Source of the DNA: Candidatus Woesearchaeota archaeon
GTDB lineage: Archaea; Nanobdellota; Nanobdellia; CAZCWL01; CAZQAZ01
Reading direction: 5' to 3'
Assembly: GCA_964591855.1 (NCBI GenBank)
Contig: CAZQAZ010000002.1
Location: 36,851-100,850 of the forward strand
Length of the DNA stretch: 64,000 nucleotides
Both the position numbers and the translations under genes were made by a program. Every line of letters starts with the position of its first letter. Positions within the stretch are counted from its first letter, which is position 1. Of this stretch, positions 10-39,273 are shown in pieces. The notes below the pieces were generated by a model. It made no database searches. It saw only the letters and a list, made by a program, of their open reading frames with translations, and was not told where the DNA came from.

Positions 10-2979
10 TTGAGTAGTCTTGGAAGTTTGACATGCGAGACTATAGAGAGATTAGAAAGAGAATCAGGTGTTATAAAGAATGTGGGTGAGGGTTACTTTG
101 TTAGTGAGGAATATAATTCTATGTATAATTACATTCCAGAGTATTGGGGAGAGGTTGATGATAACTTCAAAGGGACACTTGACTTGATGAAAGAAATATT
201 TGAGAAGGGGGTAGATTGGGAAGTAAGTCCAAAGCTAACTGTACCTAGTTACTTGGATTCAAGGTACCTTGAATACGAGGTTACAGCATATTCATTTGAT
301 CAAAATTTCTGTACGAATGGAAGACTAAGTAGTGAATCTAAAGGGTTATATACTCTAAAAGGGCAGTGTAATAGCAAGGATCTCCAGACCGATGAAACTT
401 GTAAGGACCCTTCAGTATATCCAAGCGAAGATGACGAATCCAAATATGCTGGCAGAGCCTTTAGAGATGATCTAAGTAACGATGATAATTACTTCTGTTC
501 AGACTTTACGTGTCATGCATGTTATAGAGGTCCAGAGGACATGTGGTTTAGCGGTGAGGCTAAAGAGTCGGAAAAGTTAAGTTTCGGACCATTCTGTCCT
601 ACAGGTATAAGCGTAAGCAATTCTTATGTTTATGGGATAAATTTAACTCTTAAGCCAGGAGCGTATCCAAAGGAGTGGACACCTGGTTTTGTGGTTTATA
701 TAGAACCTGACTATGATTTAGGTGTGAGTAAGGATGATTTAGAAAATGTACAAGTTAATATCTCAAATGTAGATCCCATAGGCAGGGAAGTAGACCACCC
801 CCTTTGTGAGGAAGTCACAGTATACGGTAAAGATGGCAATATTCTTACTGCAGATGAAGAGGGATGGTATACTGGTGCTAAAAAGGTTGTATGTAAACTA
901 GACTGGACGAAGCATGATGATCCAAGTGATGCGTTATATTACCTCGTATACGGTGGACCGACTAGATTAATCCCTGATAGCATTAATCTAACCTCCTACT
1001 TCCGTATAAAAATGAAAGAAGGAGACAACAGCAAAGCACATGTCAACTTCTTTATAGATATGGGTGTTGTTGGTAGTGATAGTGCATCAAGTCAAGGTGT
1101 GACCCCAGTTCTTCACGAGTATGATTGTTATAATGGGATAGACGATGATGGAGATGGAGCTATAGATCAAGATGACGATGATTGTAAGGAGGTTTGTAAT
1201 AATGGTGAAGACGATGACCACACAGTAAGCTCTAAAAAATTTGTAGAGATAATAAAAGGTTTTTATGAGGATCAAAATGATGAGTGTTACCAAGATTATT
1301 CCTGTGCTTTACAAAAAGCTATACAAAACGATCTTTTAACAGATACAGACCCCACTACTGGTGTTGATAGGGATGATTGGAAGTGTCACGAATATTCATG
1401 TACAGACGGGTCTGACGAGTATGATCCTAATAAATTCCCTGAGTTTTTCAACGACAACGATGGCAATGCGGATGGGAAAGATCCCGACTGTTGGGTTTAT
1501 GCAGACTTTTCTTGCTTAAGAGATTATGATCCAAGCAATCCATATACAACAAGCAAATTAAAAGATGGTGCTGAGGTGTTAAAACTTGTAGCAATAGTCA
1601 AAGTAAAAGATGAAGATGGGAATTGGCACTTTGTTAGAAGTGTTGATCTGGGTACAAGCGTTGTGGAGAACTACATAAACTTTTGTCCAACAAGCGAGAA
1701 TGATGAGGGACTCGTCTCCTTCTCCGGAGCTAATAATGGTTTGGTATCTATAGACTATCTTGGGACTGAGAGAAATTTCAGACCAATGCAGAGCCAGATC
1801 TCTCCTGGACTAGAAAAACCAATTGAAACTCCAGAAATACAGCCCATAAGAGGTCCATTTAGAATAGTACCTATAGAACCTGCTGACAAAGACATTGTTA
1901 CAGGAGATAGTGTTGAACTGAAGGCAGATGTTTTCAATGGGGATTCAAACTATCTTTATAGGTTTTACGTTAAGGACGTAACAAACCCTTCGGAGGGGGT
2001 GGAGACATGTGATGGAAGTGTGAAGAAATTGGAGGACAAACTAGAAGCTAGCTGTACATTTGAGGGCTTGAAAGAAGGACATGTATATGAATGGTATGTA
2101 GGAGCATATGATAAAGATGTGCCTGTGGGAACATTCTCCGATAAAAGTTTATTTAGAGTATCACCTGGTCCTGGAAGTATTTGCTACGATTACAAGGGAA
2201 ATGAGATTCCTTGTTCGTCCTTCGCAACTAAAAAGTATATAGATAGAAATCTTGTTACCCTTCCTTTAAGCTTCAAGTATGGTGCGTCAGTACACAAAAC
2301 GTATGAGTCAGAGGAACCACCAACGCCTAAGAACCCATCTTGCGGTGATTATCCAGTGGTTCAGTACTTCCCTGAAGAAGATAGGGCGAGTGATTTCTTA
2401 TTCGCATATAAGATACCTATTGAATCGTGTACAGGAAGCGACCAATGTAAGAAATGTACAATACGTTGTGGAATAGAGAGTGGAGGTATACTAAGTGAGA
2501 GTAAAGAAAGTGAGATCCTATCAAATGGTGAGGTTTGTAGTTTAGTTTGCTACGAAGAGAATGGTGATGAGGAATGCACAATATGGTGTAATCCATCTGA
2601 ACCGGAAGTGTCATGTTCTTGTAGTAAGAATGTGGCTAATGATCTTTATTATGATTACTACAACAAAGATGGCGTCCAAAGCAACGTTCGATGTAAAGAT
2701 GAGGAAGGCAAAGTTGAGTGTGTTGTGGATTACTTGGACTCGGATACAGGCGAAACAAAGAGGGTTTGCGATGTGATACACGATAAAACATGCGATGAAG
2801 AAAGGTGTGTATCTTGGGATTCAAATGATAATTGTGTGCCCGAGAGCTTTATTGCGTTTGAGAATAGAACTCTTGTTAATATGAGCTTTAAGTTCAAGTT
2901 TGATATAGATTACAATGCTTTGATCTCGCTTTACTCTAATGAAGATAGAGTACCAATGTTAATAGGGAGGGCAATATGA
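10..2979 (+). CDS. Large acidic cysteine-rich secreted protein; 5' end lies outside the window; contains a MopE/thrombospondin-like Ca-binding motif (CYNGIDDDGDGAIDQDDDDC) and an Ig/Fn3-like segment
   Basis: Open frame runs from the window edge for 989 aa. Very high Cys and Asp/Glu content. The CxDxDxDGxxDxDDDC motif was read directly. Its stop overlaps the next start (ATGA). Confidence 0.55.
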   Translation: MSSLGSLTCETIERLERESGVIKNVGEGYFVSEEYNSMYNYIPEYWGEVDDNFKGTLDLMKEIFEKGVDWEVSPKLTVPSYLDSRYLEYEVTAYSFDQNFCTNGRLSSESKGLYTLKGQCNSKDLQTDETCKDPSVYPSEDDESKYAGRAFRDDLSNDDNYFCSDFTCHACYRGPEDMWFSGEAKESEKLSFGPFCPTGISVSNSYVYGINLTLKPGAYPKEWTPGFVVYIEPDYDLGVSKDDLENVQVNISNVDPIGREVDHPLCEEVTVYGKDGNILTADEEGWYTGAKKVVCKLDWTKHDDPSDALYYLVYGGPTRLIPDSINLTSYFRIKMKEGDNSKAHVNFFIDMGVVGSDSASSQGVTPVLHEYDCYNGIDDDGDGAIDQDDDDCKEVCNNGEDDDHTVSSKKFVEIIKGFYEDQNDECYQDYSCALQKAIQNDLLTDTDPTTGVDRDDWKCHEYSCTDGSDEYDPNKFPEFFNDNDGNADGKDPDCWVYADFSCLRDYDPSNPYTTSKLKDGAEVLKLVAIVKVKDEDGNWHFVRSVDLGTSVVENYINFCPTSENDEGLVSFSGANNGLVSIDYLGTERNFRPMQSQISPGLEKPIETPEIQPIRGPFRIVPIEPADKDIVTGDSVELKADVFNGDSNYLYRFYVKDVTNPSEGVETCDGSVKKLEDKLEASCTFEGLKEGHVYEWYVGAYDKDVPVGTFSDKSLFRVSPGPGSICYDYKGNEIPCSSFATKKYIDRNLVTLPLSFKYGASVHKTYESEEPPTPKNPSCGDYPVVQYFPEEDRASDFLFAYKIPIESCTGSDQCKKCTIRCGIESGGILSESKESEILSNGEVCSLVCYEENGDEECTIWCNPSEPEVSCSCSKNVANDLYYDYYNKDGVQSNVRCKDEEGKVECVVDYLDSDTGETKRVCDVIHDKTCDEERCVSWDSNDNCVPESFIAFENRTLVNMSFKFKFDIDYNALISLYSNEDRVPMLIGRAI

Positions 2980-5078
2980 GAAAATTTGTTTATATTGCTG
3001 CTGTTGTATTGATTCTGCTAGTTGTACATCTGTCACTAGGGCTGCAGTACGACCAGAATACTAAGTGTGGAGATAAGGCCTTATCTAACAAGTTTGTTTT
3101 CTCTATTGATAACGGCTGTAAGCCATACGGTCAGAGTGGTAAGTATGTATTTACTTTTAGGGATGGGTTAGCAGCTAGAGGGGCATGTTTTGCAGAGGAT
3201 GGAAGATGTACAGAAAGCAGGTGTGATTTCTCACAACCAGATGGTTCCTTTTGTGCAGTAGGTGTTGGCATAGATAAAGGTGCTACGGAGTATGGTGCTA
3301 TTTGTAGTAGTAAAGATTATGCAGCATGGGACAACTCTTCAGGAGCATGCGTCGAATGTTCAGGAATATATGAGCTTGGAAAGTATGCCGACCAAAAAGA
3401 TATATACTTATCTCCAGAGAGTCCGCGTATAGACTCAAGTATAATGACTTTGCCAAAAGACACTCTTGGTGAGACAAGAAAGACAGTAGAGTCAGGTTGT
3501 GCAATTAGGATGGGATCTCCACTTGATGTTTATTGGTGCGATGAGTACTATCCCTTCTCTGAGGGCGAAGAATTAAACGAAGATCAAATTGACTTTTACC
3601 TTGATAAAGGAATATTTAGGCCAGATTCCTACAGGAAGGTTATTAAAAGTGAAGGTGATGACTTTGAAAAGTATGAATACTCGGATCCTATTCCCTCTAC
3701 AGAACTTCCACCGATAGCAACAGAGTGTTATACAAAGAATAAGTTTGGACAAGGGAAGTGTGCAGCTTACTGTGGTTATGATGGACAGTTGCATGCTATG
3801 GAATGTGTTGACGATAATGAGTGCCCAGACGCATTCCTCATCACCAAAGATCCAGACTCATCGGACTACTTCCCAAGATATGAAATAAGAAGATCTGTGA
3901 GGCACTGTACAAGGAAACTCCCATTTGAATGTGCAGTCGATTCCGAAGAGGATTTGGATGACTCAAGACAGGCATGTGCAGCTTACGGACTTCAATACAT
4001 TAAAGCAGGAGAGGAAAATGTAGGAGAGTATGTAGACACAGATACACTTGGATGTTGTGGAGATGATGTTTATGCAAATGGGAGACCAAAGGAATTTATA
4101 AGGTACAGGGTGGTTGTTGGAGGAAGGACAGATTATAGTGATGTAGCTTGTTGTGGAGGAGAGGATAGATGTGTATACAATGGCAAGTGTTACAAAGAAG
4201 GATCAGCTGTTACCATAGATGGAAGGAAAGCACATTGTTATAACGGTGTTTGGGTGGCAAGAGGCTTAGACTTATATTATGGCTATCCTTCATATGTAGA
4301 ACTTCCAAAGTGTGGAGACTATATATGTGATGTCTCCACAGGTGAGAATTGTTTCACCTGCCCAATAGACTGTAGCTTTGATAGAGAATTCTCAAGTGTG
4401 GAAGTGTTTGACAAGGAAGTAATGCACAAAGGAGATAAGGATTATTATCCAGACGAAGTTGGAAATTACCATAACAATTCCTTTGATCTTACATGGTCCG
4501 ATAAGATAGTATGCGCTCCGTACTCCAACTTAAAATATAAAAGTCTTTATGGCTGGACTAGAGAAAAGACTAATTTCAATAATTCAAGAGTTGTTGTAAA
4601 GTGCGATAGTGACGAAGGTAAGGGTTGCGACGATGAGTTATCCTGCGAAGGACTATTCTGGTTCAAGCAATCCTCTAATGCTTTCTGCGTTAAGGCTTCG
4701 CCTGGGGATAAGCTTGAAGTTGAGTTGGAGGATGAAAATAGTGGTGATCACAGCAAGATCTTCACTGTAGAAGAAATAGATCCAACAGCAACAGACAGGA
4801 CGAAACCATTTGGATGCTTAAACAAAGGGATAGTATGTTTTTATGTTGATGTACTTGGATTTGACTCCCATAATGTGGAAGAAGACTACGTAGATAAAAT
4901 TAAGAGTGTTAAATACATTCAGTATCCTAAATCAGTTAGATCAACATGTGAATATGATTCGGAATGTGAATCTCATAACTGTGCTAAGTTTGGAGTGACA
5001 GGTGTGTGCTGTCCTTATGGTTACAAATTCAACGGAGAGGAGTGTTACCTTCCAGAGCAGTTTGATTACGACTCTTAG
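2976..5078 (+). CDS. Cysteine-rich secreted/membrane-anchored protein (700 aa) with N-terminal hydrophobic signal/anchor
   Basis: ATG overlaps the upstream stop. N-terminus MRKFVYIAAVVLILLVV is hydrophobic. Many paired Cys (CCGG, CxxC). Confidence 0.6.
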   Translation: MRKFVYIAAVVLILLVVHLSLGLQYDQNTKCGDKALSNKFVFSIDNGCKPYGQSGKYVFTFRDGLAARGACFAEDGRCTESRCDFSQPDGSFCAVGVGIDKGATEYGAICSSKDYAAWDNSSGACVECSGIYELGKYADQKDIYLSPESPRIDSSIMTLPKDTLGETRKTVESGCAIRMGSPLDVYWCDEYYPFSEGEELNEDQIDFYLDKGIFRPDSYRKVIKSEGDDFEKYEYSDPIPSTELPPIATECYTKNKFGQGKCAAYCGYDGQLHAMECVDDNECPDAFLITKDPDSSDYFPRYEIRRSVRHCTRKLPFECAVDSEEDLDDSRQACAAYGLQYIKAGEENVGEYVDTDTLGCCGDDVYANGRPKEFIRYRVVVGGRTDYSDVACCGGEDRCVYNGKCYKEGSAVTIDGRKAHCYNGVWVARGLDLYYGYPSYVELPKCGDYICDVSTGENCFTCPIDCSFDREFSSVEVFDKEVMHKGDKDYYPDEVGNYHNNSFDLTWSDKIVCAPYSNLKYKSLYGWTREKTNFNNSRVVVKCDSDEGKGCDDELSCEGLFWFKQSSNAFCVKASPGDKLEVELEDENSGDHSKIFTVEEIDPTATDRTKPFGCLNKGIVCFYVDVLGFDSHNVEEDYVDKIKSVKYIQYPKSVRSTCEYDSECESHNCAKFGVTGVCCPYGYKFNGEECYLPEQFDYDS

Positions 5079-5080
5079 GA

Positions 5081-6325
5081 GTGAATAAAATGGTATCAAG
5101 TAAAGCTGTAGTTTTTGTTGTCTCGACGATAATAGTAGTGATAACCTTGTTTTACTTTGCTTTACCTGTTACATCAATTCTTCATGCTTCGGCAGTCGAA
5201 CTGAACATGAAATCTTACTATGCTTTAACCGATGCTATAAAAGAAGCAAACACAAAAGGCATGGGAATAACAGATAAAATCTACCTTCAGAACAATTATT
5301 TCATAGTCTTTTTCAGGAATAATGAAGTTCTTGATAAACTTGTTAAAGGGGAGATATCGGGGTTTGAGGTCAAAGAGTATGTTTTTGATGGGAGTAGGTC
5401 AGGTTATATGTATTACAGGTCTGGTGTAGATAAGAAAGTGTATGAAGTGGACAGTAAGGCGTTTTATGGTGAAGACGAATTGAACAAGTGCGATATGGAT
5501 GAAAACTGCGTATGTTTGGTGAATTTAGATTACTATGATCCCAGCAACATTAACACGTGGATATACCAAATAGGTACTGAGCAGGGCGGGTTTGGTTGTT
5601 TAGATAGAGTATCCATCCAAGATACAACTATGAATAAATGGGAGACAAATACAGAACCGTACTTTTATGAGGTGAAGCTTTTCAAGCCACTAGGATGTTC
5701 TATCCCACAGAATAATATGAAGGCACCAATTCTGGAGTACAGAGATGGTGAAGGGAAAACACACAGGTTCTTTACGGATTTCTCTACGCTTGCCTTCATG
5801 GATCAATTTATATCCAAAGTTGGGAAGAACTTTACCTTGACTTTCGTTGAGTGTAAGCCTATGAAGGAATTATGTTCATGTGATATCTGTAGTCTATATG
5901 CAGATGAATACTCATGTACAGGAACAGGCTACGAGGAAGGTAGCCACTTTGGATGTGCATGGGATAGTGAGAAAGGAATGTGCTACAATGAGAAAAATTA
6001 TGAAAACTCAACCAACGACTGTTCGTTATGGATAATAAGTGATAAGGTGCGTCAGATATATTCTATCACCGAAAGGTCTAAGTTTGATTACATAATCTTT
6101 AAGAAAGAAGGCTGTGCTTTGCAGTGGTTTGATTCTTCGAAGAGGCCAATTGGCACAGACTCTATCTTTTATGAAGATTATGGAGGAGAGCTATTTGTAG
6201 AGGGGAAGGGCGAGGATAAGGATAAGATTGGAGCATGTGAGCCATGTTTCCAGACTATACCTGTGGAGCAATGTGGGGATCAACAACCTTGCTGTAAAGA
6301 GGAGGCAAAGTGTTCTCCCATATAG
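5081..6325 (+). CDS. Cysteine-rich surface protein (414 aa) with class III-like signal (SSKA/VVFVVSTIIVVITLF) and a C-terminal CCK...C module
   Basis: Third gene of the translationally coupled operon. N-terminal basic stretch followed by a hydrophobic helix. C-terminus is CEPCFQTIPVEQCGDQQPCCKEEAKC. Confidence 0.55.
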   Translation: MNKMVSSKAVVFVVSTIIVVITLFYFALPVTSILHASAVELNMKSYYALTDAIKEANTKGMGITDKIYLQNNYFIVFFRNNEVLDKLVKGEISGFEVKEYVFDGSRSGYMYYRSGVDKKVYEVDSKAFYGEDELNKCDMDENCVCLVNLDYYDPSNINTWIYQIGTEQGGFGCLDRVSIQDTTMNKWETNTEPYFYEVKLFKPLGCSIPQNNMKAPILEYRDGEGKTHRFFTDFSTLAFMDQFISKVGKNFTLTFVECKPMKELCSCDICSLYADEYSCTGTGYEEGSHFGCAWDSEKGMCYNEKNYENSTNDCSLWIISDKVRQIYSITERSKFDYIIFKKEGCALQWFDSSKRPIGTDSIFYEDYGGELFVEGKGEDKDKIGACEPCFQTIPVEQCGDQQPCCKEEAKCSPI

Positions 6326-6664: not shown

Positions 6665-7338
6665 AAATGGCAATCAAAGCAAACGATTTTTTAATTATTA
6701 ATTTTTCTGCTAAACTTAAGTCCACTGGAGAGGTCTTTGATAGCACTTTCCCAGACGAGGCTAAAAAGCTTGGAATAGAGAATCCAAAACCTGTTAAGGT
6801 CATCGTTGGGCAGGAAATGATAGTTAAAGGTTTAGATGAAAGCTTTTTAGGAAGGGAAGAAGGAGAGGAGTACACTATAGAAGTTCCACCTGAGAAGGCA
6901 TTTGGTAAGAGAGATCCAAGCCTTGTAAAGCTTATACCTATGAAGGAATTTAAAAAACAAGGAATAACTCCTTATCCAGGCATGCAGCTAAGGATAGATA
7001 ACATTCCTGCAAGAGTCATAACTGTTTCTTCAGGTAGGGTTGTTATAGATTTTAACTTTCCTCTTGCAGGCAAGGACATAATTTATAAAGTTAAAATAGA
7101 AAAGGTTATAAAGGACCCAAAAGAGAAGATAGATACCCTTCTTGAGATGTTTAACATACAGGCTGAAAAAGAATATAAAGATAAGAGTGTTATAATAAGG
7201 TTAGAAAAAGACCTTCCAGAAAGTTTAAAAAATGAGATTTCAAAGAAAATTCAAGAGTTTACTGGTTACGAAGCTAAGTTTGAGGTGAAGTCAGATGGAG
7301 TCGATAATAAGGAACGCAAAGTTGAGAATGGAGAATGA
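6661..7338 (+). CDS. FKBP-type peptidyl-prolyl cis-trans isomerase (long archaeal FKBP with IF domain)
   Basis: FKBP fold motifs read in [17 protein letters not shown]...[19 protein letters not shown]. Confidence 0.75.
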
Positions 7339-8434
7339 AGAGAAAGGAGCTTTGGCTGTAAAAACTTTGAGATCAACAGACAAAACAAAGAACGTTGATG
7401 CTGAATTAGAGAAGTTACTTGAGAACAGGAGAGCTGCAATAAAAGTTATAGGTGTGGGTGGAGCAGGTAATAACTCAATAACAAGAATGTCGGAGGTTGG
7501 AATTAAAGGTGCAGAGTTGATAGCAGTTAACACAGATGCTGCTGACTTGTTATGTACACAGTGTGATGTTAAGATACTAATAGGAAGGGAGATCTCACAG
7601 GGACTTGGTGCAGGTGCAGATCCAAAGGTTGGTAGAGAAGCTGCTAAAGAACAAGAGCAAGAATTAAAGAAAGCTCTTAAGGGAGCAGATTTAGTTTTCA
7701 TAACAGCAGGTTTGGGTGGAGGTACTGGTTCTGGAGCAGCACCAATTATAGCAGAGCTAGCTAAGAAACAAGGCATATTAACAGTTGCCGTGGTTACTTT
7801 ACCTTTCTCAATGGAAGGTAAAGTAAGAATGGAGAATGCAATGGAAGCATTAGAAAGATTAGAAGCTGTCACGGATACAATAATAGTTATACCAAATGAT
7901 AAACTTCTTGAGATAGCTCCTGACTTACCATTACATGTATCATTCAAAGTAGCAGATGAGATCTTAACAAACGCTGTTAAAGGAATCACAGAGTTAATAA
8001 CAAAGAGCGGATTGATAAACTTAGACTTTGCGGACATTAAGGCGGTGATGAAGGAAGGAGGAGTAGCAATGATTGGTGTTGGAGAAGACGATTCAGAGAA
8101 CAGAGCACAGATGGCAGTTGAGAAAGCAATTAACAACCCATTGTTGGATGTTGATATAGCAGGAGCATCAGGTGCATTAATTAATGTTACTGGTGGAACA
8201 AACATGACTCTTGACGAAGCAAAGAAAGTAGTTGAAACCATATCTAAGATGTTAAGTGAGGATGCAAAGATAATATGGGGAGCACAAATTGAACCAGACA
8301 TGAAAAATAGCATAAGAGCTATGTTAATAGTAACTGGTGTTACTAGCCCACAGATCTATGGTAAAGACAAACTAATACTTGAAGAGAGACACAGCGAATA
8401 CGAGGATGAATTAGGAATTGAGTACTTAAAGTAA
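7295..8434 (+). CDS. ftsZ: Cell division GTPase FtsZ
   Basis: GVGGAGNN and GLGGGTGSGAAP tubulin signature motifs. Confidence 0.9.
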   Translation: MESIIRNAKLRMENEEKGALAVKTLRSTDKTKNVDAELEKLLENRRAAIKVIGVGGAGNNSITRMSEVGIKGAELIAVNTDAADLLCTQCDVKILIGREISQGLGAGADPKVGREAAKEQEQELKKALKGADLVFITAGLGGGTGSGAAPIIAELAKKQGILTVAVVTLPFSMEGKVRMENAMEALERLEAVTDTIIVIPNDKLLEIAPDLPLHVSFKVADEILTNAVKGITELITKSGLINLDFADIKAVMKEGGVAMIGVGEDDSENRAQMAVEKAINNPLLDVDIAGASGALINVTGGTNMTLDEAKKVVETISKMLSEDAKIIWGAQIEPDMKNSIRAMLIVTGVTSPQIYGKDKLILEERHSEYEDELGIEYLK

Positions 8435-17996: not shown

Positions 17997-18069
17997 AGCC
18001 CCGTCGTCTAGTGGTCAAGGATGCGGGCCTTTGGAGCCTGAGACCCCGGTTCGAATCCGGGCGGGGCTA
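17997..18069 (+). tRNA. tRNA-Gln (anticodon TTG)
   Basis: Acceptor AGCCCCG/CGGGGCT. Anticodon stem CGGGC/GCCTG with loop CTTTGGA. T-arm CCCGG-TTCGAAT-CCGGG. The D-arm pairing is imperfect in the hand fold. Confidence 0.75.
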
Positions 18070-18106
18070 TCATAATTTTTATAAAAGTTCTTATGGTGTT
18101 GAGAAC

Positions 18107-18946
18107 ATGGACTTCGATTCTAATAGAGGAGAAGAGCTTGTCAGGATAGTAATGGATGCTTACTCTTCTAGAGATCCAAAGGAATACTTGGGAAACTTGC
18201 TCCTCCCAGGCGTAGAAACAAATAGCAGAGAGCAAGCTAATTTCTTGTTCTTTGTTGCTATGTTATCCCCCTTCAACAATTCAAATACTTTAGTCAAGAG
18301 AGCAAAGCGCATCTACTCAAAACATAGCGAGATTTTTGACCCAGATAGTGTGGTAGAAGCTATAGAGAAGGATAGAAGTCTCTTTATAGCAACCCTGAGG
18401 GATTTGGAGAATAGGGAAGATTATATAGAAGCGTGGTGTAACAACTCACGAAGGCTGAAGGAGAAGTACAGCTCAGATGCTAGGAAGATATTCGAAACAT
18501 CATCTTACAAGCAGGCTATGGACAACATAACATCCTTCGATAGGTTTGGTGAGAAAACTGGTTCTATGCTTTTAGGATGGTACATCACTCTTGGATTGGT
18601 CGAAGATAATTGGGATGATATATACAATTATCCTACACCTTTAGACACACAAGTTATGAAGTTACTTGTTGGAAGAGAGGTTGTGAGCTTTGAAGGTGAG
18701 GTTGATTACGAGCCTTTGTTTAAGAGAGTTAGACAGGAATTCTCAAGTTTACTTCATGAGTTGGGAGTTAATCCATACTTGTTCCACGACGCAGCTTGGG
18801 ATTATGTTACAGGAGTGTGTAGATATTGTGAAAGGGCGCAGCACCCAGAGTGTTTATTTGGAGAACCTTGTAGGGTAGAATTAGTCACCTCAGATACGAA
18901 ACGTAGGGGGAAAGTTCGAATTACAAAGAAGGAATTTTTCACTTAA
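18107..18946 (+). CDS. Hypothetical protein with a possible HhH-GPD-like motif (PLDTQVMKLLVGRE) and a C-terminal 4-Cys cluster (CX2CX6CX5C)
   Basis: Start moved to the first ATG downstream of the tRNA (MDFDSNRGEEL). A TATA box (TTTTTATAAAAG) lies about 20 nt upstream. The function call is weak. Confidence 0.45.
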   Translation: MDFDSNRGEELVRIVMDAYSSRDPKEYLGNLLLPGVETNSREQANFLFFVAMLSPFNNSNTLVKRAKRIYSKHSEIFDPDSVVEAIEKDRSLFIATLRDLENREDYIEAWCNNSRRLKEKYSSDARKIFETSSYKQAMDNITSFDRFGEKTGSMLLGWYITLGLVEDNWDDIYNYPTPLDTQVMKLLVGREVVSFEGEVDYEPLFKRVRQEFSSLLHELGVNPYLFHDAAWDYVTGVCRYCERAQHPECLFGEPCRVELVTSDTKRRGKVRITKKEFFT

Positions 18947-19720: not shown

Positions 19721-20848
19721 CTAAAGAATGTATGGTCCAACAATGTTAATTATAAGAATGATGGTCACGAATCCTATTATGGCATTTGCTATGCTAAGCC
19801 TTAACTTATCGTTCTTCGTGAAGTATCCTAAGAACTCAAAGAGCATCTTACACCCATCTGTTATCCAGAGTACGGGCAAGAAGTTGATTATACCTATAGC
19901 CATATTCAACAAGCCAAGCCAGAATATTAAGTTATATAATCCTATTAGTATTGATCCTTCAAAGTCCCTTGGTGCGTAGTGATCTCTAAATTCCCCACCC
20001 AATCTTCCAGATCCGGTGGCTTCGTCTTTGCTTAGTGTTACAATATATTCCCCACGGGATGTATTAAGTACTAGGGTTTGATTAGGCAAGGTATTTGACA
20101 TGAAAGCCTTGAATGTTGTTATGTTCATATGGGTTCCGTTTATAGTGTATATTACGTCACCACTTGATAAATTTGTTAAGGAAAGAGGCTCACCTTTTAT
20201 GTTGAATATACCTATACCCTCATGCATCACATGTGGGGAGCTTGCTATGTGCACAGCGAGGTATGACCCCAAAAGCATGAAAACAAAAGCAAACACTATG
20301 TTTGCACCACTACCTGCGGAAAGAATCCTCAACCTATCTATGATTCTTGCTTTGTTCATACTCTTCTCATCAGGTTCGACAAATGCTAATGGTATAGGTA
20401 AAGGTAATAGAAATCCAAACCCAGCATTTTTAATACGCACTTTCCTAGCGAATGCAACTATTCCATGGGAAAATTCGTGGACAAACGCTAAGAATATTAT
20501 GGATATTATCCCACTTAGCAATGGAAGGTATGGTCCTCCTGGTAACTTTATTCCAGGAAGTATGAAAGAAGCTCCAGGTGTGGTTACTTTGCCAGTAATT
20601 ATGTCAATGGCATTGTTGTACAAAGCTTTTACTCCGACAGCAGTGAAGTAAACTGCAAGCAAAATGAACAGTGTCGACAACACTGTCCAGAACAGAGCTG
20701 GCTTTGCTAGTTTCTTCATGAGGTTTACTCCTTTCTTTGTTCTGTGAAGAAAGAAGACTTTGTTCTCAATCTGAAACTTTTTCCTATTCAAAAGTATGAG
20801 AACAATGACTAATACGTAAAAACTTAAGCTCACTAGGAGAGAGTTCAT
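19721..20848 (-). CDS. Site-2 protease family (M50) membrane metalloprotease with PDZ domain
   Basis: HEFSHG HExxH motif within a transmembrane helix, multiple TM segments, and a central PDZ-like region. Confidence 0.8.
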   Translation of the reverse strand: MNSLLVSLSFYVLVIVLILLNRKKFQIENKVFFLHRTKKGVNLMKKLAKPALFWTVLSTLFILLAVYFTAVGVKALYNNAIDIITGKVTTPGASFILPGIKLPGGPYLPLLSGIISIIFLAFVHEFSHGIVAFARKVRIKNAGFGFLLPLPIPLAFVEPDEKSMNKARIIDRLRILSAGSGANIVFAFVFMLLGSYLAVHIASSPHVMHEGIGIFNIKGEPLSLTNLSSGDVIYTINGTHMNITTFKAFMSNTLPNQTLVLNTSRGEYIVTLSKDEATGSGRLGGEFRDHYAPRDFEGSILIGLYNLIFWLGLLNMAIGIINFLPVLWITDGCKMLFEFLGYFTKNDKLRLSIANAIIGFVTIILIINIVGPYIL

Positions 20849-21040: not shown

Positions 21041-21982
21041 TTAAGCAAATTCTCTATTTAAAAAGCTTTTGAAGTAGAGAAAGAAGCCAATAACCTTATC
21101 TTTGAGGTCCTCTTCATATCCAATGCCATTTATCTCTTGACTCTTGATGTAACCATTTGTAACTATAAATGGCCATGAGCCATACTTGTTTTCTTTGTAC
21201 GTTAAGATCTTCCTATAGGGATTATAAAGATAGGGACCTCTTTTTCTTAATTTGAGTTGACATTCTCTCTGCTCCACAGGATTAAAATTGTAATCAAAAG
21301 GTTCTGAGGGGTCTGTGCTGTACATGTATCTTGCTTTACTGTAACCAAGAAGGGTGTAATCTGGGCCAAGGTACCCGTACCTTCCAAAGGTTGGATCCAC
21401 TGGAAGCCAAGAGTTTGAGTAGTTGACTTCTATCCAAGAGTGAGGTTCTCCACTCTTCCATCCATACACAACCCGCGATTCAATCCCAATGGAGTTTAGC
21501 ATACTAACTGTAAGTTTTGATATGGACTCGCAGTTCCCACTCTTAGTCTCGAATGTTAACTCTGGGCTTTTCTCGTCCTGTGAGTAGTATATGCTTTCGT
21601 AAACCCATGTTGTGATGTTTAAAATAGCGTCCATTAGTGTTTTGGAACCAGAAGTAAGCTCAAAAGCCTTTTCGCAGTAGGCTTTTGAGCAGTTGCCTTG
21701 CACATGCTTGAATGGCACGTCTTTGAATTCGAAAGGCTTTGAGTATGGTTTACTCACGCCGTAGAAATAAAACTTCCCTGAGCAGTTTAAGTATTCTCCT
21801 TCAACCTCGCAGTTCGTAGAGTAGGATTCTAAGTATGGCATTTTAATCGCAAATGATGCATTTGTCTCACCACCGAGTGTTATGTTGTAAAGAGTGTAAC
21901 AAGGTGGGGAAGCCAAGGATATTGTAGGCATTGTACATATAAGACTAATAACAAGTACAAAGGCTATAAACTTCTTTAGCAT
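21041..21982 (-). CDS. Secreted transglutaminase-like cysteine protease-fold protein
   Basis: Sec signal peptide. Cys-His core ([28 protein letters not shown]...HSWIEV). Confidence 0.65.
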
Positions 21983-22015: not shown

Positions 22016-22528
22016 ATGATAGTTGATGCTTACTTGCAGTTTAAGCCAGATGAGGAAGCTCTTAACTTAGCATACAGACTTGGCTTCGACACAGTTTTCT
22101 ATAACAAATTAAAGGTGCTTAAGAAGTATACTAAATCAAGCTTGCTATCAAATATCAAGTCGCTAAAATACGACTTGATTTTAGGCTTGGAGAAGAATCC
22201 TAGCTATTTTACATCAGGCTTGGCTAAGATAGCAGGACAGAAGAAAGTGGGTGTATTGTTCTTATTTAGCACACTATTGAACTCCAAGCCTATAGAGAGA
22301 TCTAAGTACTTAAGAAACATGAGAAAAGTAACAAGGCTATGTGTCAAATACGATGTTCCTATAGTTCTGTCATCTGGAGCAAGGGATATATGGGAGCTTA
22401 GGGGAAAATCTGAATTACTTGCTCTGGGTTCTATAATTGGACTGAATGGGAAACAAGCAAAGAACGCAATAAGCATATGGCCAATGAAGTATATCCATAA
22501 GGAAGAAATAGTCAAGGTTTTGGAATGA
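22016..22528 (+). CDS. rnp3: RNase P protein component 3 (Rpp30), shortened form
   Basis: The C-terminal half aligns with Pyrococcus Rpp30 (PIVLSSGARDIWELRGKSELLALGSIIGL). Only 170 aa. Located in the superoperon position. Confidence 0.65.
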   Translation: MIVDAYLQFKPDEEALNLAYRLGFDTVFYNKLKVLKKYTKSSLLSNIKSLKYDLILGLEKNPSYFTSGLAKIAGQKKVGVLFLFSTLLNSKPIERSKYLRNMRKVTRLCVKYDVPIVLSSGARDIWELRGKSELLALGSIIGLNGKQAKNAISIWPMKYIHKEEIVKVLE

Positions 22529-22562
22529 AAGTTATATATATAGTTAACTTTATGTAAAGAAT

Positions 22563-23465
22563 ATGAGGAAATTTGTGTTGTTGGCCATGCTTGTGTTGTG
22601 TCTAGGTTTATCTTATGCTGCAGACATAGATAAGGCCCTTATATCTATTAATCCCTATGGGAAGGCCCATGTTGAGTATACTTTGGATGTAAATGCGTCT
22701 TCATTAGAGACCATAACTATCCCAAAACCCCTAGCTGGAAGTGTTAAACTGTATCAGGATGGAGAACCTTTGGATTACAAGCTTATCAAATCAGGTGCTG
22801 AGACTTATGATGTGATCTTCACATCAAGAATAAGTAAGGTAAAACTTGAGTTTGATACTTATCTTCTAACCAGCAAGATTGGAGAGTATTGGCATGCAAA
22901 TGTAACAATGAATGTGAAACCAGATGCAACTGTTCTACTAACTCTCCCAATAAATGTGATAATCGAAGACATTAAAAGCAATGGCAACACAAGAACGTAT
23001 GCAGGTACAACCGCATTAATAGTAGAAGCTAAAGCCATAGAGCCACATTTTAACCTGTTTGTTAAGTACATGGTTAAAGGCTCTTCATCAAAGAAAAGCA
23101 ATATTCTCCCATATCTATTGGGAGGAGCCCTTATAGTTTTAGTTGGGGTTGTAATATTCTTGTATCACAGGTTTAAGGCTGCACAATTAAAGCTTAAGAG
23201 GAAGGTTAAAAGAAAGCCAAGAAAAGTTAAAGGTAAGAGGATCAAGAAGAGTGTTGATAAAGTTTTAGATAGAAATGAGAGGAAAGTGGTTTACTTTTTG
23301 AAAGACGTGGTAGACGCTACACACTCACAGATACATAGAGCAACTAAACTTCCAAAGACAACCTTAACTAAAGTACTTCAAAGGCTGGAGAAGAGAAACT
23401 TAATTAAGAAGATACCATTTGGTAAGAGGTATAGATTTGCTCTTCAGGATTGGGTCTTTGAGTAG
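22563..23465 (+). CDS. Membrane-anchored winged-HTH protein: Sec signal, extracytoplasmic domain, one TM helix, cytoplasmic basic linker plus wHTH
   Basis: Signal MRKFVLLAMLVLCLGLSYA. TM helix ILPYLLGGALIVLVGVVIFLY. C-terminal HTH VVYFLKDVVDATHSQIHRATKLPKTTLTKVLQRLEKRNLI. Confidence 0.5.
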   Translation: MRKFVLLAMLVLCLGLSYAADIDKALISINPYGKAHVEYTLDVNASSLETITIPKPLAGSVKLYQDGEPLDYKLIKSGAETYDVIFTSRISKVKLEFDTYLLTSKIGEYWHANVTMNVKPDATVLLTLPINVIIEDIKSNGNTRTYAGTTALIVEAKAIEPHFNLFVKYMVKGSSSKKSNILPYLLGGALIVLVGVVIFLYHRFKAAQLKLKRKVKRKPRKVKGKRIKKSVDKVLDRNERKVVYFLKDVVDATHSQIHRATKLPKTTLTKVLQRLEKRNLIKKIPFGKRYRFALQDWVFE

Positions 23466-23780
23466 GTGCATTGTATGAAGACCATAAGGAATAGGTATAT
23501 ACTGTTTGAGATCATTTCAGATGAAGAGATAGGTTATGAGGAGTTTAGGAAAAGCTTTTTAAATGTATGCTTCTCTCTGCTTGGAGAATTAGACTATAAG
23601 AATGCAAACATTTTAATATTAGAAAATGAGTTTAAAGGTAGGAAAGGAATAATCAAATGTTCGCATAAATATGTTGATCCCGTGAAACTGGGATTAGGCT
23701 TGTTAAGGGAGATAAACGGTAAAAAAGTCATAGTACAAAGCTTAAAAGTAAGTGGGACTTTAAAATCTTTGAAAAGGTGA
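23466..23780 (+). CDS. rnp2: RNase P protein component 2 (Pop5)
   Basis: RNRYILFEI...CFSLLGEL...GIIKCSH...VSGTLKSLKR matches archaeal Pop5. Confidence 0.7.
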   Translation: MHCMKTIRNRYILFEIISDEEIGYEEFRKSFLNVCFSLLGELDYKNANILILENEFKGRKGIIKCSHKYVDPVKLGLGLLREINGKKVIVQSLKVSGTLKSLKR

Positions 23781-35259: not shown

Positions 35260-38200
35260 TTAACACTGTAGCCATGAAGCTATGCAGTTGTATTCTGGGA
35301 GCTTACAGCAGTAGCCGCTTGCCTTACACTTCTCTAGGTTGTCTTGATTTGTTTGGAAGGTTGGCCCTATCTTGTTAAGCTCACAAACTGTAGGGGTTGG
35401 ACTTTCACCCTCTTCGAAGTTCCACACGTCACTTCCACAGCTATTCAAGCTCCCACAAGTGACAGGCTCTCCACCATCTTTCAAACAAGCCTCCACACAA
35501 GCTTTTCCAAAATCCGTTGAATCCCTGCTTATGTAACAATCACCCAAACTGCAGGTTAGCACTTGATCACAATATACAGTTGTTCCTTCGACATTGAAAC
35601 TTAAGCTTGCAAAGTCTGAACTATTAAAGTAACACACCCCATTGATGTTAACAAACTCTTTGTTTGTGTCATTCATACAAGCTTCCTCACACATCCTCTG
35701 AATCTCAGGATGTGTGGATATTATCTTCTCCACATTTGTATGTTTGATTAATGTGTTACAATCGTACACGTTATTGGATCCAAGATCGTTAGGGAGTATA
35801 TCACCTTTTGTATCCAGTAGACACACATTTCCTTCCATCTTGTTATTGTTGAAAGTCACAGGAGTATCAAACACAAACCCATATACATTGTTCACGAAGT
35901 TGTTACTGTCAAACACACCACTGCATTCGCTACATAGCACACCATAGTAATTAGAGTAGAATGTATTACCTACCACGTTTACATTTCCACCTATAGCACT
36001 TATGCCAGAGTCTGAGTTCGAGAATGAAGATGATTTGATATTTCCAACACCAGAGACTCTGACATAATTTAACCCAGTTATATCGGAGTCTTCGATTGTT
36101 ATATTACCATAAGATTCAATCTTAAAGTCCTTATCTGCATAATGGATTTTAACCCCCTTCAGCGTGAGGTTTCCATAGTTCACCAAACTACATGGAGATG
36201 TACAGTTGATGTACAAGTTAACATTCTCTAAAGTAAGATTTCCATGCACAGTTGTATTCTTAAGGAGCACAACACCTAAGTTCTTAACATTACAGTTGTC
36301 GGATTTCTCAACTATCCAATCTTTGTACGTTGAAGGATAGCACCTATTCTCTTCGAGAACAGCAATAATCTTTTTTGGAGAATCAAATCTAACTTTAAGT
36401 GTGGTGTAGTTATAATGTCTCCAGTAATTTAAGACCTGAGCACCTGTTACGTTGACTGTGTAATCTCCCACATCAATTAAGTTAAAGTCCTTGTCGAGAT
36501 AATACGCCTGTCCACACCATGTTTTAACTGGCGAAGAAATGTATCCTGCATCACATTCTAAAATCCTTGTGGTTGGATAGGGTCTTATCTTATTTCCATT
36601 TGTGTCTTTAATTTCTATCTCTATTATGCTTGTTGATGCAATTAAACCTTTAGTATTGCTATCAGGCAAGAGTGTGTTTTTCGAACTCAAGCTATTAAAG
36701 AAAGCTTCGATATCACTCCCAGATATGTCTGAGTTGACGAGCATTATTAAGAATGAACCTCCTTTTAAAGTGTTCCCTTCTATGTCAACATTGTTTTCCG
36801 AAGTAAGTCTTATAGGATTGTTATAGTACTTGTAGTCCTTTACGGTTACAGAGTTGTGTTTAATGGAACCTGAGGAGTTGGATACAGAGATCCATCCAAC
36901 ATTCATATCATTTGATGTTAAGTTTATTGTAGAGTTTGTTATTGCTAAACCAATTGATTGATCTACATCATTGTTGCTAAACTCCACCGTTGAGTTGTAA
37001 GAGTAGAGAGGATAGACTACACCAACTATGTTGCTCTCATTAATCTTAGCTTTTGAGTTAAGCACATAAAATCCATAGTATGTTTTGTAACTTCTACCGC
37101 CAGAGAATGTGAAGTTGGTGTTTGATATGTTCACACCCTTTTCATCGGATATGTAAACACCGCCATACATTCTCTTATATGGACCCGACATGAATCTATT
37201 CTTATAGAATGTGACATTCTTGTTATTTATGAGGTAGACCTCAAATATGTAACTTGATGTATTTGTGTGGAAGGTGTTATTTGTTATGTTGATGTATGAG
37301 TTTGTTGAATAGATCCCCCTCGCTCCGAAAAATGTGGAGTTGGAGACAGTTATGTTAGAGCCTCTTGCGAAGAGTCCATAATAACTCTTGTCCACCACAT
37401 TTTTAAGTGTCAAGTTAGACTCAACCGAAACAACACTTACTCCCTTGTTGTTGAAGAAAGCGTCCTTAATTTCCCCACTTGAGTTGAAGTAGTAAAGAAG
37501 CTTATTGACCTTACCAAAATCTCCAAATGATCCATAAAAGTCTTGCTTGGTGTTGAGATTGTATAGAAGTATCTTAACATTGTCTGCTTTGTTACCCCTT
37601 CCATATACTTTGTTGGTGTTGTGGATTCCTAACTTATAGTCGTATGAGAACGAGTTACCGAAGAATAATGCTTCTCCGTAATTGTAGACGAAGGAATATG
37701 CATGATCCCATGTGTTACTAATAAACCTTGTCCCTACAGCATAGTTTTTAACAGGGATGTATGCGTTTGTGAATACATTCTTTAATAGAACAGTGGGCTC
37801 CACTATGTTTAAAGCCCTCCTTCCAAAGAAAGTGTTTCCAACGAGTTTAATCTTCTCGCCCACATCAAAGTCTTTGTCTAGTTCTATGTTATTCCCTTTT
37901 AGAACGATATGATTACTAAGTGACAGTTGGCTGGTTTTGATACTGTTTCCTCTTATCACAGCCTTACTTGTTCTCACATCTAACTCTGAGTTGTGAAGTA
38001 TTGATTTTTGGATGTTCAATGAGGATCCTTCTAAAGCAGTTATGTATGCCTTACTAACAAACGAGCTGGCTATTAGTATTTGACCACCCTGGTTAGCTTG
38101 TATGGTCTTTGAGTTTCCATTAAGGTAAGAGTTTATTAAAACAAGCGCTCCACCGTCCTTCACCACAATAGGATACTTTAAGTCTATGTCTTTACCATAA

Positions 38201-39273
38201 CAAACCTCCACGTCTTTAATCTCCCAAGTTCTATCTTCTGGTATTCTACAATTGGATATGTCGTACACTCTATATTCGTTGTTTGTGTAGTTTGCATCGC
38301 CTTGTGTGGAGTTTACCACAAGTCTCAATGGAAGAATAGAACCCATATTGAAAGCATCGTATTTTGTGTTGAGCATTATAGTGCCTGCAGTCCCAACTGG
38401 GAGTGTTCCTTTTGTATACTCCAGAAGCTTTTGGTTTCTTTTGTTGAACAAGGTTAAGTTATAGTCCTCAGCGTCTACGAGTCCAAGATTATAAACTGAA
38501 GTCTGAAGAGTTCCTTCTAGAGGAGTGTAGTATAACACGTATGGCTTAATTTCTGCTTGGGAACCCATATCAAATTTAATTGATATGGTATTCGAATTAA
38601 AGAGATGTGAGAAGTCATAAGGTTCAGAATCATTTGAGGCACCATTCTCTATAATAGCTTCGTATGTTCCATCGGCTCCAAAGTCTACTCTTATTTTCCC
38701 AGAGTAGCTTGTTGTCAAGTTTGCGAAGTAGATGACAGCTCCTTGTGGTAAAGTAATATGTACTACGTCCCCTGGATTAATAGTGTTTCCCTCATTAAAA
38801 GTGTTGGTTACGTTGATCTCATTAAGAGTGAAGTTAAACTCAGCACCAAGTATTGTTTGGTCTGGAAGATAAACGAGTGAACAGTCTTGTGGACACGTTT
38901 CTTCTGTTTCATTCCCATTACATATTCCATCTCCACAGTATGCCCCAACACATGTTCTCTTGGATACGACACAAGTACGTCCAGAACTATCGGTCAATGT
39001 ACATTTAACGTAGTTATAACAGTCCTTCGAACAGAAGTTTGGAGCCAGACCTTGGCTACAGAACCCCCTATCAGATGTAACGGTTCTGACGATATTATTG
39101 TCCTCTTCACATAACTCCCTACATTCTTTCTCAAGGCTAACTATACTTTGAACTTGCTCCGTTCCACCTTTAGATCTGATAACCAAGAAGTATACTGCTG
39201 CAAGAACGGCAACTGCTATTATTACAACAGCTAGAATCTCTACGCTGCTAGCCCTCTTGTAAGCTTTGTACAT
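35260..39273 (-). CDS. Giant (1337 aa) class III signal peptide surface protein/adhesin candidate: pilin-like N-terminus, Cys module A, long N-x-S/T-rich beta-helix-like repeat region, C-terminal Cys modules A and B
   Basis: N-terminus MYKAYKRA/SSVEILAVVIIAVAVLAAV. Then EKECRELCEEDNN...CSQGLAPNFCS. Central region is rich in N, S, T and Y with dozens of NxS/T sequons (NITNNTFHTNTSSY...). C-terminus MCEEACMNDTN...YCDQVLTCSLGDC and KACVEACLKDGG...CCKLPEYNCIASWLQC. Confidence 0.75.
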   Translation of the reverse strand: MYKAYKRASSVEILAVVIIAVAVLAAVYFLVIRSKGGTEQVQSIVSLEKECRELCEEDNNIVRTVTSDRGFCSQGLAPNFCSKDCYNYVKCTLTDSSGRTCVVSKRTCVGAYCGDGICNGNETEETCPQDCSLVYLPDQTILGAEFNFTLNEINVTNTFNEGNTINPGDVVHITLPQGAVIYFANLTTSYSGKIRVDFGADGTYEAIIENGASNDSEPYDFSHLFNSNTISIKFDMGSQAEIKPYVLYYTPLEGTLQTSVYNLGLVDAEDYNLTLFNKRNQKLLEYTKGTLPVGTAGTIMLNTKYDAFNMGSILPLRLVVNSTQGDANYTNNEYRVYDISNCRIPEDRTWEIKDVEVCYGKDIDLKYPIVVKDGGALVLINSYLNGNSKTIQANQGGQILIASSFVSKAYITALEGSSLNIQKSILHNSELDVRTSKAVIRGNSIKTSQLSLSNHIVLKGNNIELDKDFDVGEKIKLVGNTFFGRRALNIVEPTVLLKNVFTNAYIPVKNYAVGTRFISNTWDHAYSFVYNYGEALFFGNSFSYDYKLGIHNTNKVYGRGNKADNVKILLYNLNTKQDFYGSFGDFGKVNKLLYYFNSSGEIKDAFFNNKGVSVVSVESNLTLKNVVDKSYYGLFARGSNITVSNSTFFGARGIYSTNSYINITNNTFHTNTSSYIFEVYLINNKNVTFYKNRFMSGPYKRMYGGVYISDEKGVNISNTNFTFSGGRSYKTYYGFYVLNSKAKINESNIVGVVYPLYSYNSTVEFSNNDVDQSIGLAITNSTINLTSNDMNVGWISVSNSSGSIKHNSVTVKDYKYYNNPIRLTSENNVDIEGNTLKGGSFLIMLVNSDISGSDIEAFFNSLSSKNTLLPDSNTKGLIASTSIIEIEIKDTNGNKIRPYPTTRILECDAGYISSPVKTWCGQAYYLDKDFNLIDVGDYTVNVTGAQVLNYWRHYNYTTLKVRFDSPKKIIAVLEENRCYPSTYKDWIVEKSDNCNVKNLGVVLLKNTTVHGNLTLENVNLYINCTSPCSLVNYGNLTLKGVKIHYADKDFKIESYGNITIEDSDITGLNYVRVSGVGNIKSSSFSNSDSGISAIGGNVNVVGNTFYSNYYGVLCSECSGVFDSNNFVNNVYGFVFDTPVTFNNNKMEGNVCLLDTKGDILPNDLGSNNVYDCNTLIKHTNVEKIISTHPEIQRMCEEACMNDTNKEFVNINGVCYFNSSDFASLSFNVEGTTVYCDQVLTCSLGDCYISRDSTDFGKACVEACLKDGGEPVTCGSLNSCGSDVWNFEEGESPTPTVCELNKIGPTFQTNQDNLEKCKASGYCCKLPEYNCIASWLQC

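Follow-up and report, generated by a model that had tools for sequence, protein, structure and literature searches.

Gene X of a Woesearchaeota archaeon: a predicted membrane-tethered winged-helix protein encoded between two RNase P subunit genes

In ToxR and CadC, a winged helix-turn-helix (wHTH) of the OmpR type lies in the cytoplasm at the N-terminus of the polypeptide, and a periplasmic sensor forms its C-terminus. Signalling from the membrane to transcription is poorly known in archaea, especially in the tiny-genome DPANN lineages, and to our knowledge its characterised archaeal examples are essentially ArnR and ArnR1. Here we describe gene X, an open reading frame (ORF) in a 64,000-nucleotide stretch of DNA from a Candidatus Woesearchaeota archaeon (GenBank assembly GCA_964591855.1, contig CAZQAZ010000002.1; hereafter the window), whose 300-amino-acid (aa) product we favour, on balance, as a one-component transmembrane transcription regulator of cell-envelope genes, most likely one that senses the cell surface. 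Window numbering is used throughout; for relatives, L-numbers denote loci or contigs and P-numbers denote proteins, P0002 being encoded on L001 and P0004 on L003.

ArnR and ArnR1 of Sulfolobus acidocaldarius are membrane-bound activators of archaellum and pili genes (PMC6396743); in ArnR the HTH is N-terminal and membrane segments come after it, and its descriptions include no large ectodomain (PMC6396743, PMC13286277). A predicted family of membrane-bound regulators, arCOG00381, occurs near pilin genes (PMC4858521). A different kind of membrane protein also bears on what follows, namely Ost1 (ribophorin I), a subunit of the eukaryotic oligosaccharyltransferase, which is reported in eukaryotes, TACK and Asgard archaea only and has two luminal domains in tandem and, in the cytosol, a four-helix bundle that binds ribosomes (PMC11417166).

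Architecture and family of protein X

The ORF of gene X and all the peptides quoted from it in the initial annotation are found exactly at 22563..23465 on the forward strand, and the topology proposed there, namely a signal peptide, an ectodomain, one transmembrane (TM) helix and a cytoplasmic wHTH, is borne out by hydropathy, by an AlphaFold2 (AF2) model and by the charge pattern of 137 relatives, such that we hold this architecture with high confidence (Table 1). Kyte-Doolittle windows above 1.4 are restricted to aa 1-27 and aa 178-209. Export of the protein is predicted from the N-terminal segment, whose putative cleavage site, SYA/AD, has small residues at positions -3 and -1, as read by eye. 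The linker that follows the TM helix (aa 205-232) contains 15 lysines plus arginines against 1 aspartate or glutamate, a net charge of +14, and the C-terminal 68 residues add a further +10.

The AF2 model, built on 52 homologues, is confident, with a mean predicted local distance difference test score of 93 and no segment below 50, the linker being less confident than the rest. It contains about 14 beta strands over aa 21-171 and a long helix at aa 181-214 that comprises the TM helix and an extension, while the cytoplasmic part consists of helices at aa 229-234, 237-248, 254-261 and 265-277 and a beta hairpin at aa 281-294, with no C-terminal helix. This arrangement corresponds to the wHTH core fold of the MarR family, in which the recognition helix would lie at about aa 265-277 and the wing at aa 281-294. 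When the family profile was compared with the PDB, the HTH domains of XylR, Lrp/AsnC, MarR and Lrs14 were matched at E 4e-6 to 3e-4, and by fold comparison the closest structures to the wHTH of X are regulators that bind double-stranded DNA. The wHTH is predicted to bind DNA. Pfam scans returned no OmpR-type (Trans_reg_C) match for X or its relatives.

An exhaustive phmmer search of 1.84 billion representatives recovered 272 clusters (at 50% identity) at E<=1e-3, with homologues outside the species reaching E 1e-39 and many aligned from residue 1 to residue 300. Pfam DUF7343 (PF24034) is matched by 49 of 52 aligned relatives, at best with 1.2e-16, MarR_2 by 40 and TrmB by 38; because X itself scores only 13.3 bits against DUF7343 and its homologues match, its place in that family follows from transitive homology and not from the model threshold. 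A census of the 137 relatives of at least 220 aa with an internal TM segment found an N-terminal hydrophobic segment in 116 of them, a median of 191 residues before the TM segment and 102 after it, and a mean of 5.5 lysines plus arginines within 15 residues after the membrane versus 1.3 before it. The positive-inside rule is obeyed by 97% of these proteins, so that the order of ectodomain, TM helix and cytoplasmic wHTH is a trait of the family. The same architecture was recovered when homologues were sought, and the view that it is rarely described in archaea needs rewording: at the level of sequence, with at least 272 clusters, it is not rare, simply unstudied. Public sources name the members only "hypothetical protein" or "uncharacterized membrane protein", and no mention of DUF7343 was found in the literature searched.

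Within the family, the parts of the protein are conserved to different degrees. In the close subfamily of X, residues G33, K105, W110, P129 and Y169 of the ectodomain are invariant, the motif K-x-S-[VI]-x-x-[VM]-L-[DE]-x-N-E is conserved at the end of the linker just before the wHTH, and L-x-D-W-V-F closes the C-terminal end, the tail of X itself being L-x-D-W-V-F-E. The polybasic linker is not kept outside the close clade and is acidic in several members, and some members carry CarboxypepD_reg-type ectodomains in place of the X type.

The ectodomain, which carries 2 N-x-S/T sequons, matches no Pfam model even at E<=10, and in the predicted structure it adopts a luminal beta-sandwich fold like that of Ribophorin_I. 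This likeness raises the alternative that X is an envelope or translocon accessory, whose Ost1-like ectodomain would take part in surface-protein assembly, anchoring or N-glycosylation and whose wHTH would bind RNA, ribosomes or protein. The overall layout is indeed that of Ost1, with a signal peptide, a luminal beta sandwich, one TM helix and a basic cytosolic domain, and the cytosolic domain of Ost1 binds ribosomes (PMC11417166). However, no sequence similarity to Ribophorin_I was detected (Pfam at E<=10; PDB profile search at E<=1, with no oligosaccharyltransferase chain), X has one sandwich domain versus two in Ost1, and the N-domains of M1 aminopeptidases match the fold almost equally well. 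The cytosolic domain, moreover, is a wHTH with no four-helix bundle, its closest structures being the DNA-binding regulators named above. We regard an accessory role as unlikely, and return below to the genomic evidence that bears on it.

That gene X is real and not a chance ORF follows from the existence of equal-length orthologues at 47%, 36% and about 33% identity and from the excess of synonymous over non-synonymous codon changes between strains (6/3, 7/2 and 4/1). Three near-identical strains (L021, L022 and L023) differ by 5-9 nucleotides (nt) per 903 nt in gene X; in the same comparison, rpp30, pop5 and psmA show 0 differences and SBDS shows 1. All the amino-acid changes (at aa 25, 151, 159 and 166) fall within the ectodomain. 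Diversity at this locus is concentrated in gene X, within a domain predicted to be exposed at the cell surface, and since the changes are confined to the ectodomain and X varies beside invariant neighbours, a surface-exposed sensor fits these data. A near-identical strain genome is available as GCA_053993735.1, a metagenome scan for gene X returned the same species only, which is present in the JGI metagenomes Ga0190313 and Ga0190314, no paralogue of X was found within the 64-kilobase (kb) window, and no mention of GCA_016839875 was found in the literature.

Altiarchaeota relatives and an S-layer-family gene

A genomic association of the family comes from the nearest outgroup of X, in Altiarchaeota. 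Scanning GTDB species genomes with the X alignment recovered 7 loci in Altiarchaeota (L009-L015), to which 4 metagenomic contigs (L005-L008) were added, and in 7/7 of these genomes as well as in L005-L008 an MJ0538-family gene comes first, then X and then an S-layer-family gene, the trio spanning 557-5185 in L005 and, to take one of L009-L015, 6554-11278 in L010, where X itself is at 7269-8234. The MJ0538-family gene encodes about 160 aa without a signal peptide, often overlaps X and matches nothing in Pfam, NCBIfam or the PDB, while the S-layer-family protein has about 950 aa (PF05124, 5e-18) and its gene follows X after a spacer of about 180 nt.

This spacer contains two, sometimes three, 22-nt boxes of the form AAATAAAG-N7-GAAC-N-TT, in which GAAC-N-TT is invariant in both copies. 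The spacing between boxes is 30 nt in 7/9 loci at a threshold of 3 mismatches or fewer and in 9/9 in the alignment, and the boxes start at the X stop codon in 8/9 loci and 128 nt downstream of it in L009. On the 3' side follow a conserved TGTTC and then the TATA box of the S-layer-family gene, and within those loci matches with 2 mismatches or fewer are confined to the X-S-layer spacer. From their sequence and placement, the boxes look like a candidate upstream site for a regulator of the S-layer-family promoter. Adjacency to an S-layer-family gene would also suit an envelope or translocon accessory of the Ost1 kind; tandem boxes that look like protein-binding DNA sites speak against that alternative and count for the preferred reading, a regulator of envelope genes. 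We do not claim that the S-layer-family neighbour is a hamus subunit, because the published hamus context (a TraB-family protein, Glu-tRNA ligase and acylphosphatase) differs from the X locus.

The locus between rpp30 and pop5

The initial annotation placed gene X between rpp30 and pop5 and suggested looking for the same insertion in relatives. The position is real in the window and is conserved at 47% identity (P0002, on contig L001, which opens with the C-terminus of Rpp30, followed by X and then Pop5), at 36% identity (P0004, on L003, a 273-kb JGI contig) and in the near-identical strains. On L003 the whole block is retained, from TFE-alpha, an M50 protease and a Zn-ribbon gene through rpp30-X-pop5-psmA-SBDS-rrp4/41/42-rpoK-eno-S2; in the window, likewise, pop5 is followed on its 3' side by the genes for proteasome alpha (psmA), SBDS, Rrp4, Rrp41, Rrp42, RpoK, enolase and S2, Rrp4, Rrp41 and Rrp42 being identified via L003 and L021. 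The best named matches of proteasome alpha are from Parvarchaeota (68%), Aenigmarchaeota (65%) and Nano- and Woesearchaeota, which places the host among the DPANN archaea, with a GC content of 38%.

In reference archaea such as Methanothermobacter thermautotrophicus, the exosome superoperon has at its head rpp30 (MTH688) and pop5 (MTH687) side by side, with no gene between them. The wider context of the archaeal exosome superoperon has been described (PMC2695463). Whether X is a true partner of this superoperon, for example one that tethers RNA processing to the membrane, is a natural question, given that the placement is kept in three lineages down to 36% identity and that in both the window and L001 the gap between X and pop5 is 9 nt and a Shine-Dalgarno-like motif for pop5 lies over the X stop codon. 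In each of these two, AGGTG stands 6-7 nt before the pop5 ATG, in the same TAGGTG arrangement, and gene callers choose the ATG equivalent to 23475 as the pop5 start. This overlap with the X stop makes co-transcription and translational coupling of X with pop5 probable.

A partnership with RNase P or the exosome nonetheless seems to us highly improbable. The arrangement is limited to a small clade, one member of which (P0005) lies elsewhere, as do all the relatives that are more distant; reference archaea such as M. thermautotrophicus have rpp30 and pop5 adjacent without an X-like gene; X has a promoter-like box of its own; and in L003 X and pop5 stand apart, with a spacer of 182 nt (6946-7126) between them that contains a stem-loop and a T-run as well as a second TATA-like box. 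In other DPANN members the next gene is unannotated or carries DUF5667, and the downstream neighbour in L002, the sole one read, begins with a signal-like segment. Since the family outside the small clade is linked to cell-surface genes and not to RNase P, the superoperon position is probably no clue to function, and we see in X a lineage-specific insertion, stably kept between rpp30 and pop5 within an operon that is strongly expressed, rather than a sign of a role in RNase P. An envelope or translocon accessory coupled to pop5 could draw some support from residence in a superoperon for RNA processing and translation, without becoming likely in our estimate.

The L003 spacer has features of its own. 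It opens with a direct repeat, GGGGAACAA(T) x2, after which come TTGTT, a TATA-like box, a stem-loop (GGCACGG...CCGTGCC), a T-run and the second TATA-like box. It has no Rfam match, the stem-loop is not unusually stable (z -1.15), and the spacer may represent a terminator plus promoter, or a small RNA.

In L001 (counted from the second ATG) and in L003, equivalents of the TATA-like box upstream of X stand at a distance of 26-27 nt from the start codon, which suggests that X has a promoter of its own and that its mRNA is leaderless or nearly so. In the window, this box is enclosed by a palindrome, AAGTTA-N10-TAACTT (22529-22550), whose near-perfect form AAAGTTATATAT/ATAGTTAACTTT spans 22528-22551 and which may be an autoregulatory operator. 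The palindrome has 11 matches in the window versus 9.8 expected, and only the site upstream of X is perfect (0 mismatches). A bolder version of the regulator reading would have the surface sensor drive and autoregulate, from this palindrome-embedded TATA box, a transcript that runs into pop5, psmA, SBDS and the exosome genes, in addition to controlling envelope genes; if so, an operon for RNA processing and protein turnover in a probably host-dependent archaeon would be tuned by an extracellular or cell-contact signal through one membrane protein. We consider this version quite unlikely.

Upstream of rpp30, a gene for an M50 site-2 protease with a weak PDZ match (19721-20848, reverse strand) adjoins TFE-alpha and a 58-aa zinc-ribbon gene, in a block conserved in L003 and L021. 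X is a conceivable substrate of this protease; we know of no identified substrate of an archaeal site-2 protease. Regulated intramembrane proteolysis, as in SREBP and ATF6 or in bacterial anti-sigma factors, offers a precedent for an alternative in which the ectodomain of X would be clipped upon a surface signal, the site-2 protease would cut the TM helix and the soluble wHTH would then act on DNA. The M50 gene lies 1.7 kb from X on the other strand and has been retained as a neighbour in both L003 and L021, the TM helix of the window protein has helix-destabilising residues in it or at its edge (P183, G188, G189 and G197), and a tether of about 25 residues limits reach, such that a released wHTH would reach more of the chromosome. 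Yet the adjacency reflects whole-block synteny of close relatives, as the M50 gene is absent from the contexts of L002, L004, L005, L007, L009-L014 and L018-L020 and lies 6 kb away in L015; the glycines and proline are not conserved in the family, P0004 having none; and a conserved site-1 cleavage motif was not seen. Proteolytic release thus appears doubtful, and a wHTH that acts while still tethered remains the version we prefer.

Other features of the locus are recorded here in their own right. Rpp30 is unusually short, and its Pfam alignment covers just the ~107 C-terminal residues (model positions 106-212 of 214); Rpp30 of L003 has 192 aa, and in this DPANN lineage the RNase P subunit may have been reduced. 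A gene for a secreted transglutaminase-like protein (21041-21982, reverse strand; signal peptide; Transglut_core 4e-18) lies between the Zn-ribbon gene and rpp30; the L003 block, although syntenic in other respects, lacks it, so that it is the second exported-protein gene with a lineage-specific insertion at this locus. A tRNA gene (Rfam, 61 bits) at 17997-18069 runs into the 5' end of ORF 18011-18946 as listed, and the true start of this unannotated 311-aa ORF is probably a downstream ATG (MDFDSN...).

The window also encodes large cysteine-rich proteins of 989, 700, 414 and 1337 aa (10-6325, forward strand, and 35260-39273, reverse strand). Those of 700, 414 and 1337 aa begin with a segment resembling a signal peptide or TM anchor, while the 989-aa ORF (10-2979) has none at its current, possibly mis-called, start. 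The proteins of 989, 700 and 1337 aa have no Pfam match, and the 1337-aa protein carries 32 N-x-S/T sequons. All four are probably surface proteins of the DPANN cell and as such candidate targets of a surface-sensing regulator; a shared motif upstream of their genes was not found.

Table 1. Features of gene X and its surroundings in the window, and box pairs at Altiarchaeota-type loci (a dash under Strand is a blank entry)
Feature	Coordinates	Strand	Basis or remark
Gene X, type I membrane protein with C-terminal winged helix, 300 aa	22563..23465	+	ORF, homologues, AF2
Signal peptide, aa 1-19 (MRK, hydrophobic core, SYA/AD), predicted	22563..22619	+	hydropathy; putative cleavage site
Extracytoplasmic all-beta domain, aa 20-183 (164 aa)	22620..23111	+	Ost1 / M1-aminopeptidase-N-domain-like sandwich fold
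Transmembrane helix, aa 184-204	23112..23174	+	hydropathy, AF2, relatives
Polybasic juxtamembrane linker, aa 205-232	23175..23258	+	charge count
Cytoplasmic MarR/ArsR-like winged helix (DUF7343 type), aa 233-300	23259..23462	+	Pfam, PDB profile matches, AF2
rpp30 (RNase P component 3), upstream neighbour, 170 aa	22016..22528	+	RNase_P_p30 3.6e-19
TATA-like box TTATATATATA	22532..22542	+	within the rpp30-X spacer of 34 nt, its centre ~26 nt upstream of the ATG; read from sequence
AGGTG, Shine-Dalgarno-like	23464..23468	+	overlaps X stop; 6 nt before pop5 ATG 23475; read from sequence
pop5 (RNase P component 2), downstream neighbour	23475..23780	+	Rpp14/Pop5 2.7e-14; ORF start 23466/23475
Box pair	L005:1989-2040	-	alignment/mismatch scan
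Box pair	L007:5298-5349	-	alignment/mismatch scan
Box pair	L009:3701-3752	-	alignment/mismatch scan
Box pair	L010:8229-8280	-	alignment/mismatch scan
Box pair	L011:8794-8845	-	alignment/mismatch scan
Box pair	L012:8251-8302	-	alignment/mismatch scan
Box pair	L013:7205-7256	-	alignment/mismatch scan
Box pair	L014:8242-8293	-	alignment/mismatch scan
Box pair	L015:8236-8290	-	alignment/mismatch scan

Proposed role and comparison with known systems

Taken as a one-component regulator, X would work as follows. A Sec signal peptide would export the protein and the single TM helix would anchor it, such that the 164-aa beta-sandwich domain would face the cell exterior and the basic linker of about 25 residues would keep the MarR-like wHTH a few nanometres at most from the cytoplasmic face of the membrane. 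The ectodomain may detect the state of the envelope or something at the cell surface, be it a ligand or a partner, upon which the tethered wHTH would bind promoter DNA; by analogy with the Altiarchaeota outgroup, the targets would be genes of cell-surface proteins. In this DPANN lineage, X with its own putative promoter would have been inserted between rpp30 and pop5 and have become coupled to pop5. What is shown is the gene with its topology signals, the folds, the family size, the synteny and the cis-elements of Altiarchaeota, whereas export, DNA binding, the signal sensed, the target genes and the direction of control (activation or repression) are matters of inference.

Several observations weigh against this reading. 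All the wHTH scores of the window protein itself lie below the Pfam gathering thresholds (TrmB, 22.3 bits versus 25.6; MarR_2, 21 versus 27; MarR, 18.1 versus 24.6; DUF7343, E 0.075, with a cut-off of 27.6 bits), so the wHTH call rests on the family profile, the PDB profile matches and the fold. The flanking helices through which MarR proteins dimerise (alpha1, alpha5 and alpha6) are absent from the model, and winged helices can also bind RNA or proteins. The recognition helix reads KTTLTKVL in X and KATLSDIM in the Altiarchaeota type; neither PF05124-type S-layer homologues nor MJ0538 homologues were found in the 64-kb window; the Altiarchaeota box is not enriched there (22 matches versus 19 expected); and the palindrome over the TATA-like box of X is not kept in L001 or L003. 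Genomic context also varies within the clade, since its member P0005 lies outside the RNase P operon. Given the missing homologues, the unenriched boxes, the different recognition helix and a palindrome that is unique and unconserved, no target can be named in the window.

If the reading holds, the large unstudied family that X represents would provide a simple route from the cell surface to DNA that is free of a phosphorelay. In Altiarchaeota, a regulator gene, two 22-nt boxes and an S-layer-family promoter lie within 200 base pairs, a concrete pairing that makes the function of the family testable and that could give access to how archaeal S-layer genes are regulated, a subject about which little is known. 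The finding in the window itself is more modest, namely a well-supported annotation of a hypothetical gene and a lineage-specific insertion in a highly conserved RNase P-proteasome-exosome superoperon. Membrane-tethered one-component regulators are already known; X would add to them an undescribed type I layout with an Ost1/M1-N-like sensor domain.

The initial annotation had called the protein "ToxR/CadC-like in logic". The logic stands as a prediction, because X, like ToxR, CadC and TcpP, would be a single polypeptide with one TM helix, an outer sensor, an inner winged helix and no phosphorelay; membership of that family does not, because the orientation is reversed, with the sensor N-terminal behind a signal peptide and the wHTH C-terminal, and because this wHTH is MarR/ArsR- or TrmB-like and not OmpR-like. 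With ArnR and ArnR1, X would share the role of an archaeal membrane-bound HTH regulator of genes for surface structures, although its domain order is opposite to that of ArnR and none of our searches detected a sequence relationship between the two. X is not a member of arCOG00381. Nor is its family arCOG01055, an assignment that was considered and rejected, since in the 2014 "dark matter" paper that cluster appears as a MarR protein that is soluble and associated with viruses or plasmids.

Compared with MarR repressors, X is membrane-tethered, lacks the N- and C-terminal dimerisation helices and scores below the Pfam thresholds. From Ost1 it differs in having one luminal-type domain of about 160 aa, a cytosolic wHTH and no sequence similarity. 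It is with the DUF7343 (PF24034) proteins that the likeness is closest in kind, as these have the same type of wHTH and the same layout of an N-terminal hydrophobic segment, an ectodomain of about 190 aa, one TM helix and a tail of about 100 aa, although X scores below the cut-off of that model and its ectodomain is without a Pfam model.

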